Source: a virus. Taken from it: a DNA stretch of 64,000 bases. The stretch lies in UHGV virus genome UHGV-0236300; one strand, 5' to 3'. The notes beneath the pieces are model-generated. The model saw nothing but the letters and a program-made list of their open reading frames with translations. It had not been told where the DNA came from and searched no databases. The position numbers were made by a program, and so were the translations under genes. Below are positions 1-8,582 of the stretch, piece after piece (position 1 is the first letter of the stretch; each line of letters starts with the position of its first letter).

Positions 1-763
1 TAACAAATATCTATTAAACCCAGATGACCATTATAAAAGTTGGACGTGGTGCGGTATTGCCGATGCGTTTGCAAAGGCCAATGGCTATAAAGATACAAAA
101 GAAGCCAAGAAAAAACTGCCTGATACATTTGATGATGAATTAGCACAATTTGCAATTGATAATGCAGAACGTGTATTTCAATCCGTTGCAATTGGCGGTG
201 GTGCCAAAATAAAGAGAAAAGAAACTATCGAGAAGTCAAAGAAAGATAGGGATAAGGTTTATGTACATCCAAATGAGGATGTCGAAGGCTTTTATATCGC
301 AAATGGTAGGCAAATGGTCTTTTATTCCAATAGGCTTTTGGAAATTGACGGCAAGATGCAGCCTGCTGAACTAATAACTGATGTTTGGACTGACATTAGT
401 TGGAATGGAATAGCAAATGAAGGCGGCGTTAGTTTCAAAAATGGAAAAAAGCCCGAAGCGCTTTTGAAGCGAATTTTCGAAATGTGTACGCGAGAAGGAG
501 ATTTAGTCTTGGATTCATTCGGCGGTTCAGGAACTACTGCTGCCGTAGCTCACAAGATGAAAAGACGTTGGATCTCTGTCGAGTTAGGTGATCATTGTCA
601 TACCCATATCATCCCGCGCTTGCAAAAAGTGATCGATGGCAAAGATCAAAGTGGTATTTCTAAATCTGTAAACTGGCAAGGTGGCGGGGGCTTTCGCTAT
701 TACAAACTTGCCCCGAACTTAGTTATGAAAGATAAGCTTGACTCAGAAGAAGATTTAGAGTAA
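1..763 (+). CDS. DNA methyltransferase (beta-class amino-MTase, N6-adenine or N4-cytosine type), C-terminal part; 5' end outside window
   Basis: ORF open from nt 2 to stop at 761-763; AdoMet motif DSFGGSGTT and KKPEALLKRIF segment typical of Mod-like MTases. Confidence 0.75.
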   Translation, partial: NKYLLNPDDHYKSWTWCGIADAFAKANGYKDTKEAKKKLPDTFDDELAQFAIDNAERVFQSVAIGGGAKIKRKETIEKSKKDRDKVYVHPNEDVEGFYIANGRQMVFYSNRLLEIDGKMQPAELITDVWTDISWNGIANEGGVSFKNGKKPEALLKRIFEMCTREGDLVLDSFGGSGTTAAVAHKMKRRWISVELGDHCHTHIIPRLQKVIDGKDQSGISKSVNWQGGGGFRYYKLAPNLVMKDKLDSEEDLE

Positions 764-822
764 TATTTAAAATATCTAAGGGTAGGTCTACTCTTCACAC
801 AAGATAAGGAGAACACCAAACG

Positions 823-1065
823 ATGAAGCGTTATAAACCATACACTTTTGAAATCGATTTCGAACTTGACGATATGCTCACTGTAGAAGCTCAGGCAGTT
901 GTCCAGTTGCCAGATCCGGAGTGCCGTGATTCTGATGTTGATTATTATGGATTTAGACAGATTACTGATGTGCATGTTTACCACACAACGGAGAAGAGGT
1001 GGATTTTCACCAGTTACCAAACGATCTGCGCCACTCGATTTACAAACGTGCAGCACGTGAACTAG
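823..1065 (+). CDS. hypothetical protein
   Basis: 80-aa ORF with AAGGAGA RBS upstream of ATG. Confidence 0.5.
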   Translation: MKRYKPYTFEIDFELDDMLTVEAQAVVQLPDPECRDSDVDYYGFRQITDVHVYHTTEKRWIFTSYQTICATRFTNVQHVN

Positions 1066-1126
1066 AGTCCTATCTGGATGCAGCGACGACAGCGGCAGCA
1101 TTTGCTGAAGAAGTAGGAGGCTTCTA

Positions 1127-1525
1127 ATGATTACAGATGTGAAGATTATCCAATACCACCTAACCAAATTAGAAGATGCTGAAAAAGAGCTTGCAGAAGT
1201 TCTGAACAGTGGGTATACTTTACTGACATGCTCCTGCTCAGACACATACATTGTGTGGACACTTGCTAAGAAGGAAGAGCCTGCATGGATCTTGGTGCCA
1301 AACCCAGAGATCGCTAGTGAAGTTGATGGCTACTCCCAAGATAACGGCTTGCCAGAAGGTTGGGAAGTGTGGGAAGGTGGTGAAAACCCTGCACCAGGTA
1401 AGTGGGTAAAATACAAACTACGTAGCGGTGCACAGTATGCTGACTACTCTGATGACCTAGACTGGAGTCACTCTTCACCAGGATCATCTGCAAGTGCATA
1501 TGATATTGTTGCTTTTCAGGAATAA
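1127..1525 (+). CDS. hypothetical protein
   Basis: 132-aa ORF, RBS GTAGGAGG upstream. Confidence 0.55.
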   Translation: MITDVKIIQYHLTKLEDAEKELAEVLNSGYTLLTCSCSDTYIVWTLAKKEEPAWILVPNPEIASEVDGYSQDNGLPEGWEVWEGGENPAPGKWVKYKLRSGAQYADYSDDLDWSHSSPGSSASAYDIVAFQE

Positions 1526-1537
1526 GGAGAGGGTGTT

Positions 1538-2020
1538 ATGTCAGATTTTATGTGGAAGGTAGGTTATGCCTCTCCTGAAATGTGTGAGGCTTGTTTTGTG
1601 AAAATAGGCCGCGAGGATATTGACAAAGTGATCCTTAAGTTTCGTGATGTGTCTGTAATCGGCAACCGAGTTCTTAAGCACTTAAAGAATCTGAAGCTCA
1701 CCAAGAAGAAGTTCTTCGGACTTTTCGAAGAGAAAGTTGATGCTTGGACCCATTGCATTCAGGAAGCTAAATCTCACTACAGTGCTATCGTTACTCCGGA
1801 ACGGGTAGCCAAGATGGAAGGATTCATCAACAGCACGGAGTTTGAGTGCCTAAAGGCTGCCCTTGATAGCTATCCAAAGTGCCTCAAACACCTTGACAAG
1901 TATGTAGAAAAGGATGGTGAAATGTATCTCACCCTGGACGCATACTATGAGATGCAAGAAATTTTAAATTTAGATTTGACATTGGTATCCACCGAGTATA
2001 CAATAGGTATCCGGGTTTAA
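1538..2020 (+). CDS. hypothetical protein
   Basis: 160-aa ORF, RBS AAGGAGAGGG upstream. Confidence 0.55.
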   Translation: MSDFMWKVGYASPEMCEACFVKIGREDIDKVILKFRDVSVIGNRVLKHLKNLKLTKKKFFGLFEEKVDAWTHCIQEAKSHYSAIVTPERVAKMEGFINSTEFECLKAALDSYPKCLKHLDKYVEKDGEMYLTLDAYYEMQEILNLDLTLVSTEYTIGIRV

Positions 2021-2027
2021 CACTATG

Positions 2028-2053
2028 CCCTGCCCGAAAGGGTGGGGCTTTTT
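2028..2053 (+). terminator. rho-independent terminator
   Basis: 8-bp stem CCCTGCCC/GGGTGGGG (G-U wobbles), GAAA loop, then CTTTTT; near-identical copy at 13029-13056. Confidence 0.6.
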
Positions 2054-2071
2054 GCATTAGGAGACAGCAAA

Positions 2072-2836
2072 TTGAAATTTATCTACAAAGAACACTACCA
2101 CAAAGGTGTCGTGTGGAGTCTATTTGACGGGTCTGGTGGTGCAGTTATTGACTGGGCAAAAGCTGGGTACCTGTGCCTGTGCTTTAATGCAGAAGGTGCT
2201 GACCACGGTAGTTATGCAGAGGTGATAACCGATCATCCTAACATTCACTATGTGGATTATTGGATTGATCCATGGTTCCCTCAAGAAACTTTTTGCATGT
2301 ATCCAGCTCCAGACTTTATTCTTGCATTTCCTCCGTGCACGCATTTAGCAGTATCCGGAGCTGCACACTTTAAGAAAAAGCTGGCTAAGGACCCACTGAT
2401 CCAAATTAATGCTGTGAAAGATGCTCGGGTTGCAGAAGAGTTGGGAGAGATTTATGATTGCCCGTGGCATGTAGAGAACCCTGTAGGAGTTATGTCAACA
2501 CTGTGGCGAAAACCTGATTACCGTTTTCATCCTTCGGATTATGGTGGGTATCTACCAGAGGACGATGTAAACCCATGGTTTCCTGAATTTATAGCTCCAC
2601 GTGATGCCTACCCAAAAATAACTTGCGGTTGGATAGGCAATGGATTTATAATCCCCGCCACAAAACCTGTCCCGCAAATAGTTGATGTGGTTAGTGGTTA
2701 TTCCATGCAACACGCTAAGCTAGGTGGAAAGAGTGCAAGGACGAAGATGATTCGAAGCCTTACACCACGTGGCTGGGCAAGAGCTGTATTCTTAGCAAAC
2801 GAGCCTGCAGTAAGGAGAAGAATTAATGGGCAGTAA
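2072..2836 (+). CDS. C5-cytosine methyltransferase-like protein (divergent, small)
   Basis: Motif I-like LFDGSGG, motif IV-like FPPCTHLAVSGA (PC dipeptide), motif VI-like HVENP; start taken as TTG 2072 after AGGAG, since GTG 2042 lies inside the terminator stem. Confidence 0.45.
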   Translation: MKFIYKEHYHKGVVWSLFDGSGGAVIDWAKAGYLCLCFNAEGADHGSYAEVITDHPNIHYVDYWIDPWFPQETFCMYPAPDFILAFPPCTHLAVSGAAHFKKKLAKDPLIQINAVKDARVAEELGEIYDCPWHVENPVGVMSTLWRKPDYRFHPSDYGGYLPEDDVNPWFPEFIAPRDAYPKITCGWIGNGFIIPATKPVPQIVDVVSGYSMQHAKLGGKSARTKMIRSLTPRGWARAVFLANEPAVRRRINGQ

Positions 2837-4904
2837 ATTCATGGCATCTGCATACAACCGTTTCGGTGAGCCAAACCCGAAAGCAACTAAGTATAAAAGT
2901 GGGGGAAGTGTGAAACGAGACTATCGTGATGAAAAAGAAGTTGAAACTGTAGAGACTGTTTTAGAAAATACTAAAATTGTCCCTGTTCCACAACAAAATA
3001 TTGGACTGATGGCTGCACAATATTTTGGTGTACGATCATCGCTATCCCAAGAGGATGGTGTAACTGTTACTGCCACCTACTTTCCGTATTATGACCGCTA
3101 CGGTAATCTATCTGGCTTTAAAAAGCGGGACTGGACAATCCCTAAAGAGCAAAGGGGCCATTTCTCGGTTGTTGGCATAGTAAAGGCCAACTCCCAGATG
3201 TTTGGTCAAAAGCTGTGTGCATCCTCCAACAACCGCAAGCAGATTAACGTTTGTGAGGGGGAAGGAGATGTTATTGCAGCGTGGCAGGCTGCATATCAGG
3301 TACAAGTAAAAGGAATTCTCACCAATACTAAAGCCCCGGCGAAGGTGAAGCAGTGGGCTAAAGAAGTCCAGGATGGGATTGATGCAGTTATCAACGGCGG
3401 TGATCTGGCAGGAAAACCATGCCTGCCTTTTGTCGGAATTAACTGCGGGTGTGCAAACGCCGTAGACACTTTTGCGAACAATGAGAAATTTATCCGTAGC
3501 TACGGAACAGTAGTCCTTGCAATGGACAACGATGCAGCTAACGAGGTAGAGAAGCAAAAACACGTTATCAAAGGTGTTGAAGCTACGCATAATATCGCAG
3601 CATTTTTGATGGCTGACAACGTTTACCACGTGGAATACCCAGGTGAGGTAAACGACCCTGATGGTGTAAAAGATATTCGTGACATGCTGAAGGCTAAAAA
3701 GCTGGAAGATATTGTCAACATGTTCCGTCACCCAGTCAAATATGTGCCTGATGCTGTATCTGATTTAGAAGACTTCTCCATTGAATCTCTTCGTAAGAAG
3801 ACTTCCAATGGCGTGGATATCAGTGCAGAGTTCCCTAAACTGCAGAAGATGCTGAAAGGACTCCACAAAGGCACCTTGATGATGCTGACAGGCCCGTCTG
3901 GCGGTGGTAAAACAACTGTAGCCAAGAAGCTGGAACATTGCATTGCAAGATACTTGATGGACCCAACATGCCCTAAAGCTGATGATTATGAAGAGGATGA
4001 TCGCCTGTGCCTGATTCACCTTGAAGAGGATCCTGAGGAAGCAATCAACTCTCTGTACGCTAACCAGCTGGGGTTTGATGTTAAAGAGTTTGTTGAAGAC
4101 CCCAGTCAGTTCCTGACCGATCAGGAGCACGCTGAGATTCATCAATCTTGGGCCAAGGCCGGAAAAATCAAAGTGTTCAAGCATTTCGGCTCCATCCCTG
4201 TAGATGAGCTGATCACTAAGCTTAAACAAATGGTGTGCCTGTATCACTGCCGTTACATTGTGCTGGATCACTTGTCTATGGTGATTTCAGGGCTTAATGT
4301 TAAGGATGAGCGTAAAGAGCTTGACATGGCTATGACTCAACTAGCCGCGTTCTGTAAGCAGTTTAATGTGTTTATCTTGGTGATTGCTCACCTGAAGCGC
4401 ACAGAGATTGTACCTCCGAAGGATAAGGATGGAAATCCGTTACCTTTCTGGTACCCTGTACGAAAAGAGAACCTTCGCGGTAGTGCCGGATTGGAGCAAC
4501 TTAGCTGGGTGGTTGTCGGGGTAGAGGCAGAGGAGATGGTGGATCGTTCCCGTGGGCGTGTCCGGCTGGTAGGTCTTAAAAACCGCCCAGCAAAAACCTT
4601 AGGTATTGCGGACACTCTAGTTATGGATCCCCACACAGGCAAGTTCCACGATGCCAGCAATTGGTATTGGGATAAAGAGATGCAGATGTTTACAGACGGG
4701 GAAGGTGGAGAGGTTGTTTGGAGACCTCAAGCTATGTTTGAGGATCAGGAGCATGCAGTTGTAGAAACACCTGTGGGCAAGGTTGTGGCTGATAAGGTTA
4801 TAACTCCTGCTGTTAACCCTGTTGACACACAGGAAGATCTTCAGTATGATGATCCGTCCTCTAACCACGTTCCTGGTTTTGAAGACGACGAAACACCTTT
4901 TTAA
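2826..4904 (+). CDS. DNA primase-helicase (T7 gp4-like)
   Basis: TOPRIM-like CEGEGDVIAAW; Walker A GPSGGGKTT; Walker B-like FILVIAHL; acidic C-terminus ending EDDETPF; RBS AAGGAGA. Confidence 0.85.
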   Translation: MGSKFMASAYNRFGEPNPKATKYKSGGSVKRDYRDEKEVETVETVLENTKIVPVPQQNIGLMAAQYFGVRSSLSQEDGVTVTATYFPYYDRYGNLSGFKKRDWTIPKEQRGHFSVVGIVKANSQMFGQKLCASSNNRKQINVCEGEGDVIAAWQAAYQVQVKGILTNTKAPAKVKQWAKEVQDGIDAVINGGDLAGKPCLPFVGINCGCANAVDTFANNEKFIRSYGTVVLAMDNDAANEVEKQKHVIKGVEATHNIAAFLMADNVYHVEYPGEVNDPDGVKDIRDMLKAKKLEDIVNMFRHPVKYVPDAVSDLEDFSIESLRKKTSNGVDISAEFPKLQKMLKGLHKGTLMMLTGPSGGGKTTVAKKLEHCIARYLMDPTCPKADDYEEDDRLCLIHLEEDPEEAINSLYANQLGFDVKEFVEDPSQFLTDQEHAEIHQSWAKAGKIKVFKHFGSIPVDELITKLKQMVCLYHCRYIVLDHLSMVISGLNVKDERKELDMAMTQLAAFCKQFNVFILVIAHLKRTEIVPPKDKDGNPLPFWYPVRKENLRGSAGLEQLSWVVVGVEAEEMVDRSRGRVRLVGLKNRPAKTLGIADTLVMDPHTGKFHDASNWYWDKEMQMFTDGEGGEVVWRPQAMFEDQEHAVVETPVGKVVADKVITPAVNPVDTQEDLQYDDPSSNHVPGFEDDETPF

Positions 4905-4962
4905 TGTTTAACCAAGAGTGGGAGGGGTAGTACAACCGCCTCCCCTTTAAGGAGAACTGTAT

Positions 4963-7386
4963 ATGAGCATGTGGTCGTTCGATTTTGAGGCCTCTGGCTT
5001 GCTGGAAGACCCAGATCTTTATTATCACTGCGGTTTGTTTAAAGAGCTGAATAAGAACCGTTTTATGCTGTTCCTTCCCCTAAATGACCGCACACACTAC
5101 TCTGAAGAGGATGTGGAGAAAGCTAAGAACTTCATTCTGGCAAAGAAGACCCTTTATACAGATTTTGAGGCTCGCATAGCAGATTTTTCAGAGTTGGAAG
5201 GCTGGCTTACAGGCAATTCAGACTGGTCACCTACGGCTTTGAACTGTCATAACTGCTACAGTTACGACTTTATGCTGATGGAAAGATTATCCGGTATTCA
5301 TTTTGATATGTTCCGTGATCCTAAATGCATGGGAACTATCAACGACCACCAGGTTAATCTGTTTGATACGTTAGCGATGAGTCGAATCTTGTGGCCTGAC
5401 CGCCCTTTGCCAAAAGGTTGTCCAGACGCAGTATTCAATCCAGTTACCAAGAAAATGCAGCCTGTTGGACCTCATGGTCTTATGGCATGGGGCTATGCCC
5501 TTGGTAACCAGAAAGTTCAAATCGATGACTGGCGGGAGCTTCCGCTGTGGAAGTATGTGGATCGTGTGTTCGAGGACGTTATCATTCAGGAGTTGCTCTG
5601 GAAGGAGTTGGTAGCGGAATCAAAAGGTGTATTCTACGGCAAATCTGACATGCAGAACTTTATGTACGATCCTGCCAAAGAGAAGCCGAAAGGCTTCAAG
5701 AAGATCACCTGGAAGAACGCATTACGCCGAGGCATGTTACAGCACTTCCTGATGGAGCTGCAGGCTCGACAGGGGGTGTATTTCGACATAGATGGGGCTA
5801 TTGCTTTACGTGATCGTTGCGATGCGTGGATGAAAGAGATCGCTGATCGTGTTGAACCACAGCTTCCTTTAAAAGAGTTATCAATGTCTCAGCGGCCTAA
5901 GTTCCCTGAAAAGCCGTTTAACCAGGATGGGACAATCTCCAATAATGGTTGGAAATGGTTAAAAGACAAGCTTGGCTATCCTGTGGACATGAGTGCTTTA
6001 GAATTTAAAGCCCCTCCTAAGCGAGCATTTACCTCCACAGGGGATGTAAGTAAGATGGGGATAAAATGGTGTGAAGAGATGGGCTGTAAAGACCCCGATA
6101 AGATGGCTGATTTCTTGAGGGGGTATATCAAAGGAACTTCTACACCACACCCTTTACCTAAAGAGCTGATGGATCAGGCGATAAGTGACCTACAGCAGAA
6201 GCGAATGCCTGACTGCAAGATACCCATGAAAATCAGCAATCAGGACGACATCAAGCGATACCTGATCAGTGCTGGTTGGCTCCCAACAATGTGGAGAACT
6301 AAGGATGTAACTAAGGATAGCAAGAAGAAAGCTTTACCTGATGCAGATGTTGATGCACGAGTATATGCATATATGGACGAGCTTTTGGAGTCAGAGTATT
6401 GTGACCTAATTATCAACTTCTGGAACAAAACTGATGCTAAGTTCCAGACAACTGTACATAAGTTCAGAAGCTTCCCTAACTCTGAAAGAATTAAAAAGGA
6501 AGTGTTCGGGAAAATACGTAGAAAAGCCAGAGCGCTTATTACTTCTCCGCAACTGAAAGATACGTTTGGGCACCTGTGCCCGAATCTTGAAAAATTGAAC
6601 GGAGAGATGGCTAAAGATATCGTTTTGTGGTTATCATTGCGAAACCGTAGATCGGTCCTTGATCCAATCAAGGAAGATAAGGTTGATACTGGTCTTCTTA
6701 ATCATCCACGTTTGAAGATTGACCACAAACTTCCTGCTAAAAGTTCTGGATTAACAAACACTTCCAGACAGAAACATAGTATTTGTGCAAACATGCCTAA
6801 ACCATCTCCTAAAGTGGTTATGGGTAAAGAGATGCGTAGTCTGTGGGGTGTTCCTCCGGGATACTTTGAGATCGGTATTGACGGGTCCAACTTAGAGCAG
6901 CTCATCGGGGCCTGGGGTGCCTTTGAGTTTGACAACGGTCTGTATTATGATGTTGTAAGTAACGGGGACGCGCACCAAAACAATGCTGAGGCATATACAA
7001 AAGTAGCAGGTAGAGAGGTGTCCCGTAACGATGGTAAACCTATCACGTATGGGGTTATGTATGGGGCACAAAAAGATAAAGTTGCAGATATGCTGGATAT
7101 CTCTCCCGAACTGGGGCAGAGAGTAATCGATGCTCTCTGGGATGCCAACCCAGGTCTTAAGGGGCGCAAAGAGGATCTGGAGAAATTCTGGGAAGCAACA
7201 GGTAAGAAATTTATCTACTCTTTTGACGGGCATGCTATTTGGACACGCTCTAAACACTCTTTGCTTAATGCATATCAGCAAAATGGCGGTGCATCACTGT
7301 GTGACCTAGTTGGGATACTCATGCACCACCAGATGGTGAAGCGTGGATGGTATGATGAGGGTGTTCGTCGTATTATTTATTACCAT
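4963..7386 (+). CDS. DNA polymerase, family A, exon 1 (proofreading domain, motifs A and B)
   Basis: Exo I FDFEASG; motif B RxxxKxxxYGVMYG; QQNGGASLCD segment like T7 QSAGALICK; frame hits stop at 7390-7392 just before the expected motif C. Confidence 0.85.
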
Positions 7387-8228
7387 AAATAACATTGTGG
7401 CTTCGTGCAGTGATGCACGTCGAAAACCTCTTTAATTGACGGGAAGGCTAAGTTGACTTTTACGCCTAAACATGGTAAAAGCTCAATATGCTAATCCGCA
7501 GCGAAGACTAAAGGGGTGTAGTTAAAATGGCTAGATCAGTTGATTATCACGGATATACCGTGTTTGATGATGGAACAATACCTTTATCGAAACGTGATCA
7601 TACAACAATGTTTTGTTTTGATAATGGTAGAGGTTACCTTTGCGTAACCATGCTCATCGAGGGGAAGCAGTGCACAAAAGGTGTCCACCACTTGGTTGCT
7701 GAATGCTTTGTACCGAACCCTGATCCTGAAAAGCTCACATGGGTGAACCATAAGGATGGAAATAAGTACAACAATGCATACTGGAACTTGGAATGGACTA
7801 CCCCTGGCGGAAATATCAAACACGCCTACGATAATGAACTCAGAGTAAGGCCAGTCGGTGAGTATAATGCCAACGCTGTACTGACCGAGGATGAGGTAAC
7901 GGAGATTTGTGAACTGTTGCAGAGTGGTCTACGACAATGCGAGATTAGGGATCTTGGGTATCCTTATGAGACGGTTAGGGCCATAAAGCAAAGAAGACAG
8001 TGGAAACATATCTCTAAAAACTACACCTGGTAGTAACGTTCAGAGACTATCGAAAGCATAGCTCCAACATAGTTTGGTGTGAAGAAGCGAGTAGAGTAGG
8101 CCAGCAAGTGCGGTCGAAATGAGAGGTGCCTTGGTGACAAGGCAGTGAGATAGTCCGATCCATACAGGAAACCGTATGGCTGTGCACGTAATGGTGCGGG
8201 GTAGCTTAACGACCTACCTGAACTATTG
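7387..8228 (+). mobile_element. group I self-splicing intron with HNH endonuclease ORF, interrupting the DNA polymerase gene
   Basis: Core elements P AATTGACGGGAAGG (7434-7447), Q AATCCGCAGC (7493-7502), R GTTCAGAGACTA (8038-8049), S AGATAGTCC (8148-8156); upstream exon ends in U (7386), intron ends in G (8228); candidate P1 between exon CCAU and intron GUGG (7397-7400). Confidence 0.8.
7527..8033 (+). CDS. HNH homing endonuclease (intron-encoded)
   Basis: HNH motif HHLVAEC...NHKDGNKYNNAYWNLEW; ORF sits between intron elements Q and R. Confidence 0.8.
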   Translation: MARSVDYHGYTVFDDGTIPLSKRDHTTMFCFDNGRGYLCVTMLIEGKQCTKGVHHLVAECFVPNPDPEKLTWVNHKDGNKYNNAYWNLEWTTPGGNIKHAYDNELRVRPVGEYNANAVLTEDEVTEICELLQSGLRQCEIRDLGYPYETVRAIKQRRQWKHISKNYTW

Positions 8229-8582
8229 GATGAGTACCAACTTCAAGTGCCTGACACACCTAAGTATAAAACTGTATACACCTTCGACACAATTGAAGAG
8301 CTGGAAACATTTAAAGCCCAACAAGAGGCTAAACTTCATGTGTTCGACGGTCATAAGTACAAAAAGGCACGCAAAGATGAGGACGGAAACGAAGTGGTTG
8401 ACAAGGACGGAAATACGGTATACGATCCTATCTTGAACGATGACGGAAAGCTTGAACTTATCTGGAGCCCTGTGGGCGAAATGGTGGTGCATTGCTTCTG
8501 GCAGGCTTCTAAAATGATGGGCGTTCCGTTCCAGATCACAGGTGAATACTTGTGCGGTCGTAACTGGGGCGATTGTCACTAA
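8229..8582 (+). CDS. DNA polymerase, family A, exon 2 (motif C and C-terminus)
   Basis: Begins GAT GAG directly after intron 3' G; with exon 1 gives YYH|DEYQ (motif C HDE); ends GRNWGDCH with terminal His as in T7 gp5. Confidence 0.7.
   Translation, partial: DEYQLQVPDTPKYKTVYTFDTIEELETFKAQQEAKLHVFDGHKYKKARKDEDGNEVVDKDGNTVYDPILNDDGKLELIWSPVGEMVVHCFWQASKMMGVPFQITGEYLCGRNWGDCH

Follow-up and report, generated by a model that had tools for sequence, protein, structure and literature searches.

A group I intron with an HNH endonuclease gene interrupts motif C of the DNA polymerase gene in a Vequintavirus genome

In a 64,000-nucleotide stretch of viral DNA (UHGV-0236300; hereafter the window), the source of which is a Vequintavirus, an rV5/FV3-like coliphage, the DNA polymerase gene is in all probability broken after the His codon of motif C by a mobile, splicing group I intron of the IA type, which carries an HNH gene in its P6a loop and whose removal restores a polymerase of 925 amino acids. 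Annotations of this intron already exist for sister phages, and its homolog in a related phage was already seen to splice. All positions given below are those of the window, and all features lie on the + strand.

In the list of open reading frames the polymerase gene extends from 4963 to 7392. Exon 1 (4963-7386; 808 codons of a family A, T7 gp5-like polymerase) ends with the motif C His codon CAT, the third base of which is T 7386. The stop codon of the reading frame, a TAA in frame with exon 1 (7390-7392), is located four bases into the intron, thus translation of unspliced RNA would stop there and the polymerase would be cut off before the Asp/Glu. Exon 2 (8229-8582; 117 codons and a stop) starts with the Asp-Glu of motif C, ends with ...GRNWGDCH, and matches phrog_8888 ('DNA polymerase', positions 186-295 of 295) with E=1.6e-57. 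The last base before exon 2, 8228, is G. When 7386 is joined to 8229, the frame is preserved and the 925-aa product ...RRIIYYH/DEYQLQ... (the slash marks the junction) with the C-terminus GRNWGDCH results; at the nucleotide level the spliced junction reads ...TATTACCAT/GATGAGTAC..., and the peptide spanning the predicted junction is IIYYHDEYQLQVPDTPK. Splicing after G8229 instead would break the frame.

The first-pass annotation had placed the stop of the polymerase reading frame at 7390-7392, the exon-terminal U at 7386 and the intron-terminal G at 8228, and every one of these coordinates proved to be correct. Its junction, 7386 to 8229, is exact: all seven intron-less alleles that were sampled abut precisely at this point, three of them with nucleotide-identical flanks, and intron-less alleles read on in frame past 7386. 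In three other contigs of public assemblies a called gene product is identical, residue by residue, to the spliced 925-aa protein of the window. Moreover, when the gene of the sister phage EmilHeitz was joined at the equivalent of 7386/8229, the resulting protein agreed with GenBank QXV77979.1 in every residue.

Comparison with known polymerases supports the same reconstruction. The polymerase aligned to T7 gp5 with E=5.5e-16, the match sought in the alignment of the joined protein to family A polymerases, which had been proposed as a check. The T7 gp5 alignment passes straight through the splice junction (YYH/DEYQ against WVHDEIQ), showing that joining restores motif C, and the earlier claim of a T7 gp5-like ending holds in the comparison of GRNWGDCH with the GPNWAICH of gp5. 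HDE is residues 653-655 of T7 gp5, and we take H881-D882-E883 of Pol I to be the corresponding motif C. In a homolog profile search T7 gp5 was found with E=8e-24, and Klenow, Bst and Taq with values from 1e-8 to 1e-5. The sequence RRIIYYHDEYQ is unchanged among uninterrupted homologs down to 46% identity. The Pfam DNA_pol_A score rose from 27.9 to 31.8 bits once the exons were joined, still below the 34.3-bit cut-off. The similarity of the C-terminal tail to T7 gp5 is of modest significance, its score being reached by 18 of 1000 shuffles, and a 157-aa C-terminal query against the PDB gave chance matches only and did not recover T7 gp5. Judged from its sequence, the joined product is a family A DNA polymerase of the T7 gp5 type, motif C HDE included.

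The interrupting element (7387-8228) is 842 nt long, with omega-G at G8228; its limits follow from the intron-less alleles, and its class from matches to the Rfam group I model RF00028, the gathering score of which is 50 bits. No match was obtained in a scan of the whole window at the gathering threshold. In a permissive scan the window's copy scored 31.1 bits (E=7.5e-6), with only the 5' half aligned and the 3' half misaligned into the open reading frame. Alleles at the same codon that lack the reading frame scored 75.6 bits (SYGMH1, 328 nt, E=2e-19), 64.7 bits (rV5, 276 nt) and 56.9 bits (L009). Thus, of the covariance-model match expected in the first-pass annotation, the part concerning the ORF-less alleles was borne out, whereas the window's own copy stayed below the gathering score. 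The ribozyme core of the window differs from that of SYGMH1 at 7 of 311 positions (~97.7% identity by alignment count), and the low score of the window's copy is attributed to the 531-nt insertion carrying the reading frame in P6a and not to damage of the core. At its default threshold, the Rfam group I model skips introns bearing an endonuclease gene.

The four conserved elements described in the first-pass annotation are present in canonical order, P (AATTGACGGGAA, ~7433-7445), Q (AATCCGCAGC, 7493-7502), R (GTTCAGAGACTA, 8038-8049) and S (GAGATAGTCC, 8147-8156), with the HNH reading frame between Q and R. Taking into account the E-values of the window's copy (7.5e-6) and of the ORF-less allele (2e-19), the observation as a whole is far beyond chance. 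These scores, together with compensatory changes in the helices described below, uphold the assignment as a group I intron, and by its predicted fold the element belongs to the phage IA type with P7.1/P7.2 and P9.1/P9.2 extensions. Its guanosine-dependent self-splicing is predicted.

Because MAFFT misaligned the variable arms of the intron variants, base pairs were counted on a hand-registered alignment. Twelve compensatory pairs were counted, in P2 (3), P6a (3), P7 (1), P9 (4) and P9.2 (1); P3 and P4 vary on one side only. An unconstrained MFE fold of the full RNA recovered P1, P2, P3, P8, P9, P9.1, P9.2 and the stem closing the reading frame. The 5' strand of P1 (7383-7388) consists of exon CCAU and intron AA and pairs with the internal guide sequence UUGUGG (P1 3' strand, 7395-7400), which is indicated by pair counts and the MFE fold. 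All six pairs of P1 are invariant over 12 variants and were recovered by both the Rfam alignment and the MFE fold, and a wobble of U7386 with G marks the 5' splice site. P2 is the hairpin CGUGCA-GUGA-UGCACG (7404-7419), three of whose six pairs are compensatory between intron types. The 5' strand of P3, ACCUCU (7426-7431), has its partner at 8122-8127 according to pair counts and the MFE fold. The P4-P5 domain (7436-7500), defined by Rfam alignments and P4 pair counts, comprises the P element with the P4 5' strand (7436-7443, A7439 bulged), an extended P5/P5a/P5b arm (7446-7492) that folds at -11.3 kcal/mol, and the Q element with the P4 3' strand (7495-7500).

In the P6/P6a arm (7501-8039) the endonuclease gene forms a loop, which is closed by a 9-bp stem of GGUGUAGUU (7515-7523) and AACUACACC (8019-8027). 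This stem was found in all six endonuclease-bearing (HEG+) variants and in both the MFE and the centroid folds of the full RNA, and it overlaps a Shine-Dalgarno-like sequence, GGGGUG, that precedes the HNH ATG. In the ORF-less alleles a 5-bp tetraloop hairpin takes its place in P6a. The R element with the P7 5' strand (8038-8050; GACUAU at 8045-8050) pairs with AUAGUC (8150-8155); in P7 one U-A pair is replaced by C-G, a compensatory change, and one further change affects a single side. Between P7 and P3' there is a peripheral arm of the P7.1/P7.2 type (8051-8094), a hairpin in the alifold consensus in which some pairs appear, on inspecting the aligned rows, to covary; in the rV5-type intron it is shrunk to 10 nt. 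Such a P7.1/P7.2 arm is characteristic of subgroup IA. The 3' part of the core (8122-8158) contains the P3 3' strand (8122-8127), P8 as a hairpin with a GUGA loop (8127-8145), and the P7 3' strand along with the S element (8146-8158), and is followed by P9 (8160-8179, GAAA loop), P9.1 (8183-8198), P9.2 (8200-8218) and a 3' tail to omega-G 8228. The phage T4 td intron (IA2, I-TevI) likewise has P7.1/P7.2 and P9.x extensions on an IA-type core, with its reading frame looped from P6a; its host gene is that of thymidylate synthase, and its endonuclease is GIY-YIG, not HNH. A search for promoters or terminators within the intron gave nothing exceeding shuffle expectation.

Some features of this fold could be read as signs that the window's intron is a decaying copy impaired in splicing, with a polymerase that is poorly expressed or an allele heading for loss. 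There is an A.C mismatch at base pair 7 of P9 and, by inspection, a U.U in the P7.2-type stem, both at places where sister alleles pair normally. P10 is weak, with three of four possible pairs, in comparison with the clean CAUC/GAUG read from the sequences of L009 and L010, and the RF00028 score is only 31 bits. However, both mismatches are in peripheral helices, P1, P3, P4 and P7 do not differ from their counterparts in alleles above the Rfam threshold, and the insertion accounts for the low score. In addition, no second family A replicase was found at the locus, and the exons of this one are intact and conserved. Decay of the intron is therefore very improbable, and we retain an intron that splices as the preferred reading.

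The gene within the P6a loop (7527-8033; 507 nt, 168 aa) encodes an I-HmuI-like HNH homing endonuclease, in agreement with its earlier description as an HNH homing endonuclease. Its best match among solved structures is I-HmuI (PDB 1U3E, E=3.9e-5), over residues 34-100 only, which correspond to the HNH core; the alignment takes in VHHLV...NHKDGNKYNN...NLEW. The match to phrog_59 ('HNH endonuclease') has E=1.9e-38, whereas that to Pfam HNH_3 (E=2.9e-4, 20.9 bits) is slightly below the 24.8-bit cut-off. Against six homologs dN/dS was 0.05-0.11 at dS up to 0.75, values that indicate purifying selection. The nicking activity of the enzyme and its target are predicted.

Among ~117 Vequintavirus genomes roughly 37 are HEG+, 20 ORF-less and 60 intron-less, as estimated from coverage and piece counts, and four states of the locus coexist: intron-less, two ORF-less forms, and endonuclease-bearing. 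In four of the seven intron-less alleles sampled, four synonymous changes are clustered at the start of exon 2, within its first 12 nt. The intron-less haplotype of EduardKellenberger is GATGAGTACCAA, the recoded one, as in B9-1, GACGAATATCAG. The notion, drawn from two alleles, that the start of exon 2 is recoded in every intron-less allele was rejected, since three of the seven have the same flanks as the intron-bearing alleles; for the same reason the recoded haplotype may be mere ancestral variation. A 331-aa reading frame in L008 was considered as a GIY-YIG enzyme, for which Pfam gives no support; it has only a weak PHROG 'homing endonuclease' match.

This distribution of alleles bears on what maintains the HNH gene. 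The intron may splice as proposed while the enzyme is selected chiefly for its role in competition between phages, by marker exclusion or by interference with a rival's polymerase gene. I-HmuI and I-HmuII cause mutual exclusion of flanking markers. Strong purifying selection, the coexistence of intron-less, ORF-less and HEG+ alleles among near-identical phages and the clustered synonymous changes would all suit such a role, and there is a published precedent in which interference between phages that co-infect is brought about by an intron endonuclease (PMC11620839). Ordinary homing accounts for the distribution of alleles equally well, and we consider competition as the chief selective force unlikely, although it is compatible with the explanation that we prefer, a mobile intron that splices.

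The closest relatives are the Vequintavirus genomes of the BASEL collection (EmilHeitz MZ501062, AlexBoehm MZ501048 and others), which have the same gene with the same 842-nt intron and the same HNH reading frame and differ from the window by sequence variation only, the DNA of the locus being ~94.5% identical. In EmilHeitz the coding sequence is annotated as a two-piece join at the identical junction; Maffei et al. (2021, PMC8594841) derived the boundaries of the BASEL introns from comparative genomics. In most other records (rV5, FV3, RefSeq versions) the exons were left unjoined. A more distant relative is Pectobacterium phage CB7 (Certrevirus, Vequintavirinae), which has a more divergent host polymerase and whose second DNA-polymerase intron interrupts the same codon (...RRIIYYH/DEYQLE...). 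The ends of this intron are homologous to those of the window's (CCAT/AAGTAACATTGTGGCTT...), its RF00028 score is 46.6 bits, and it contains a different and shorter HNH_3 endonuclease, CB7_50 (127 aa against 168 aa). CB7 has one further intron upstream that is absent from the window. Splicing of the intron with CB7_50 was scored by RT-PCR and confirmed by Sanger sequencing (PMC7344957).

The same paper offers an argument for the view that no splicing takes place, that exon 2 is translated independently and that the polymerase consists of two polypeptides associating after translation: one HNH insertion described there does not splice, and the mobE-split NrdA of Aeromonas phage Aeh1, two polypeptides that associate post-translationally, was cited as the precedent (PMC7344957). 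An in-frame TTG (8226-8228) lies immediately 5' of exon 2, with GTG at the equivalent position in L009, and many GenBank and RefSeq records have two separate 'DNA polymerase' coding sequences. Yet no Shine-Dalgarno-like sequence was seen in the 20 nt before 8226 (TTAACGACCTACCTGAACTA), and the break would cut the catalytic HDE triplet itself. Furthermore, a ribozyme with covariation fills exactly the interval that is absent from the intron-less alleles, and the CB7 intron at the same codon does splice. Taken together, these observations make a polymerase of two separately translated parts most improbable.

Similar insertions are known from other phages. The T7-like phages ΦI and W31, which are podoviruses, are reported to have a polymerase intron located, by the numbering of E. 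coli Pol I, at site 881 (PMC3428280). There too the polymerase is of family A, T7 type, and the intron bears an HNH homing endonuclease. Since site 881 is in motif C, this intron would occupy the same H/DE position. A sensitive DNA search with the window's intron revealed no T7-like phage among the sampled matches. The I-HmuI-type introns of Gram-positive phages are also group I introns that encode an HNH endonuclease and interrupt the family A polymerase gene of a phage; their insertion is at site 674, in the fingers subdomain, in contrast to site 881 at motif C in the window (PMC3428280).

In the envisaged mechanism, exon CCAU and intron AA of the pre-mRNA would pair with the guide UUGUGG, placing the U.G pair at the splice site. 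The first attack, after U7386, would come from an external guanosine bound in P7, and the freed 3'-OH of exon 1 would then attack after omega-G8228, ligating 7386 to 8229. The ligated mRNA would be translated into the 925-aa family A polymerase with its catalytic Asp-Glu intact; unspliced RNA would give an 809-aa product, presumably inactive. The 9-bp stem brings the two ends of the HNH gene together, so that the ribozyme core should still be able to assemble, and it would partly mask the ribosome-binding site of the gene, with a possible coupling between HNH translation and intron folding. When phages co-infect, polymerase alleles that lack the intron would presumably be nicked close to the insertion site by the I-HmuI-like enzyme and would gain the intron through recombinational repair (homing).

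More tentatively, and with the odds rather against it, the locus could be a living snapshot of a full homing cycle. Its stages would be empty sites, some susceptible and some recoded and possibly nuclease-resistant, two ORF-less builds, and an HEG+ form whose RBS-covering P6a stem may link translation of the endonuclease with the folding or splicing of the intron; the H/DE site may have been colonised in T7-like podoviruses independently or by transfer.

The general understanding of group I introns is unchanged by this locus, and what is added here, modestly, is its polymorphism across sister phages and the 9-bp stem shutting the loop of the reading frame. In most public rV5-like records, among them that of rV5, the type phage, and the RefSeq entry of FV3, the polymerase appears as a truncated gene and 'hypothetical proteins', and the main value of the result, a practical one, lies in propagating the correct, joined annotation. 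The failure of default Rfam thresholds to find endonuclease-bearing introns matters for automated annotation of phages, therapy candidates included. For the biology of the group, these E. coli phages provide a natural series, with two intron-less haplotypes, two ORF-less builds and the HEG+ form, that is suited to tests of homing, nuclease resistance and intron modularity.

Over this 3.6-kb region, identity is 95% with Escherichia phage FV3 and 90-95% with about a hundred further Vequintavirus (rV5-like) genomes. A primase-helicase gene (2826-4904) lies upstream of the polymerase ORF (4963-7392, plus strand, stop TAA at 7390-7392), which is labelled DNA polymerase in all annotations; a 168-aa HNH ORF follows at 7527-8033. 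The T at 7386 completes a His codon (CAT), and nucleotide 8228 is G. When 7386 is joined to 8229 the frame is preserved, and exon 1 (4963-7386) and exon 2 (8229-8582) together encode a 925-aa product, reading GVRRIIYYH/DEYQLQVP across the junction. Its C-terminus, GRNWGDCH, had been likened in the first-pass annotation to that of T7 gp5; T7 gp5 ends GPNWAICH. All coordinates of that annotation (among them the polymerase stop, 7386 and 8228) proved correct when checked on the sequence.

Three independent lines, empty sites, exact-sequence lookup and homology, agree on the predicted junction 7386/8229. A synthetic query of the spliced junction was matched as one unbroken piece by many Vequintavirus genomes. 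Seven intron-less alleles were fetched (B9-1, EI-SP-GF, UViG173923, EduardKellenberger, Pr121LW, rV5_ev147 and JES2013); in all seven the exons meet exactly at CAT/GA with zero additional bases, and in three the flanks are nucleotide-identical to those of the window. On three other contigs a called gene product matches the predicted spliced protein exactly; as gene-calling programs take no account of splicing, these polymerase genes were taken as uninterrupted. Splicing the EmilHeitz gene at this junction gives a protein equal to GenBank QXV77979.1. Alignment of the joined protein to the family A polymerase T7 gp5, a check proposed beforehand, runs through the junction (IIYYHDEYQL vs. MAWVHDEIQV, E=5.5e-16), HDE being residues 653-655 of gp5. 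A profile of uninterrupted homologs matches T7 gp5 at E=8e-24, and also Klenow, Bst and Taq; RRIIYYHDEYQ is invariant among uninterrupted homologs as distant as 46% identity. The proposal that splicing at this junction would restore the HDE of motif C is supported by the intron-less alleles, the identical called proteins and the gp5 alignment.

The covariance-model search, likewise proposed, gave no match in the window at the Rfam gathering threshold (50 bits); a permissive scan found the group I model RF00028 at 31.1 bits (E=7.5e-6), in an alignment that is right for P1-P6 and whose 3' half runs into the ORF. ORF-less alleles at the same site pass the threshold: SYGMH1 carries an ORF-less version of this intron (328 nt; 75.6 bits, E=2e-19), its core differing from that of the window at 7 of 311 positions (counted in an alignment including both), and rV5 has a 276-nt form (64.7 bits). 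A 311-nt form from a more divergent metagenomic relative scores 56.9 bits. Twelve intron variants were registered by their conserved junctions and base pairs were then counted. P1, with a U.G wobble at the splice site, is invariant, and compensatory pairs occur in P2 (3), P6a (3), P7 (1), P9 (4) and P9.2 (1). Unconstrained folding of the whole 861-nt RNA yields P1, P2, P3, P8, P9, P9.1 and P9.2. The P7-P3' arm and the P9.1/P9.2 helices probably represent the IA-type architecture usual in phages. The passing ORF-less alleles and the compensatory pairs support the group I assignment. A polymerase split without splicing is very unlikely: no ribosome-binding site was seen before exon 2, the split would break the catalytic triplet internally, and the interval absent from empty sites is exactly filled by a covarying ribozyme. 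That the window intron (7387-8228, 842 nt) is a decaying copy that splices poorly is possible but weakly supported; two mismatches in peripheral helices and a weak P10 speak for it, whereas the core helices do not differ from those of alleles passing Rfam.

Homology supports the proposed HNH homing endonuclease. The best solved-structure match of the 168-aa ORF is I-HmuI (1U3E, E=3.9e-5), an HNH nicking endonuclease from the polymerase intron of SPO1, of which it is a homolog by sequence; its match to phrog_59 has E=1.9e-38. Comparison with six homologs gave a dN/dS of 0.05-0.11 at dS up to 0.75, and the protein is therefore maintained by selection. The data would fit a possible role of the nuclease in phage-phage competition. 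The ORF takes the place of a small P6a tetraloop hairpin seen in ORF-less forms, in a loop closed by a 9-bp stem of GGUGUAGUU (7515-7523) with AACUACACC (8019-8027). This stem is present in all six variants carrying the endonuclease gene and in both MFE and centroid folds. It overlaps a Shine-Dalgarno-like GGGGUG 5' of the HNH ATG, which suggests that HNH translation may compete with folding.

Among about 117 Vequintavirus records, roughly 37 carry the 842-nt form with the endonuclease gene, about 20 an ORF-less form (276 or 328 nt) and about 60 no intron, as estimated from match coverage and piece counts. Comparison of 7387-8228 with four relatives' loci (L002, L005, L009 and L010) showed the variants to be modular: two P2 types and at least two P8 types combine differently with a long or short P5 arm and with a P7.1/7.2 arm that is either long or 10 nt. 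Such a mosaic implies recombination among intron variants. When 8229-8240 was set against loci L004, L007, L017 and L021, four clustered synonymous changes were found in nt 1-12 of exon 2 (GACGAATATCAG vs. GATGAGTACCAA) in four of the seven intron-less alleles, with exon 1 unaltered over its final 27 nt. This could be a nuclease-resistant target haplotype or simply standing variation. The recoding does not track intron status, as the other three intron-less alleles lack it and are identical to intron-bearing exons.

Some relatives carry further insertions. In VB-EcoM-WM (PQ014731, locus 501-3899), JEP1 and Mangalyan, polymerase exon 1 contains an extra in-frame 323-aa insertion, absent from the window, after SNGDAH; it starts CYSGDTQILT, ends VAVCGN and is followed by Cys. 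Pfam gave no match to it, but unrelated proteins (PhoH-like, RNR, ThyA) have PHROG profiles that match it internally, a behaviour typical of inteins. In the divergent relative IMGVR_UViG_3300045988_163358 (minus strand, 1-7497) the polymerase is in three exons, with the motif-C HNH intron and a second group I intron (2421-2723, RF00028 68.5 bits). The 331-aa ORF in the latter has no more than a weak PHROG 'homing endonuclease' match, and its assignment as GIY-YIG is unsupported. The primase-helicase of this relative is longer (988 aa vs. 692 aa in the window) owing to an in-frame insertion that may be an intein. Sixteen 'Campylobacter phage' records (MG0656xx), classified as Vequintavirus, are 85-93% identical to the window locus; those inspected are flagged UNVERIFIED, and Campylobacter as host looks doubtful.

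A two-piece polymerase join is already annotated in BASEL genomes (EmilHeitz, AlexBoehm, MaxTheCat and others), for EmilHeitz confirmed to be exactly at the equivalent of 7386/8229; the exon boundaries came from comparative genomics (PMC8594841). The 2013 rV5 paper described introns only in the terminase, gave the polymerase as '775 aa' and treated the region of intron and exon 2 as hypothetical ORFs 225-227. In the FV3 RefSeq entry the polymerase is given as two separate CDSs. 'Hypothetical proteins' of public records lie inside the intron or out of frame over exon 2 (window 8176-8436, plus strand; rV5 DQ832317 ORFs 225-227; FV3_00207), and are probably spurious calls from the intron going unrecognised. 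Motif C of E. coli Pol I is H881-D882-E883; with site 881 in motif C, H/DE would be an intron site described before. According to a secondary source (PMC3428280), the polymerase introns of T7-like PhiI and W31 are at Pol I site 881 and those of SPO1, Bastille and Pf-WMP3 at site 674. Pectobacterium phage CB7 (Certrevirus, same subfamily) has, at the same codon, an intron with homologous ends holding the HNH gene CB7_50, scored as splicing with RT-PCR and Sanger confirmation (PMC7344957). Among the matches listed, polymerase genes holding intron-RNA relatives belong to Certrevirus, Seunavirus, Klebsiella, Vibrio and Pseudomonas phages. In Escherichia phage Av-05 (KM190144, 120740-120872), the terminase large-subunit gene contains a stretch with ~73% identity to the polymerase intron's 5' half; this suggests that related ribozymes reside in different genes of rV5-like phages, and terminase introns are described in the rV5 paper.

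We are highly confident that the observation is confirmed and that its interpretation, a group I intron with an HNH ORF whose removal rejoins motif C, is supported. The intron-split Vequintavirus polymerase is already known; the value of the present analysis lies in annotation clean-up and in a natural series of alleles that is convenient for experiments on homing.
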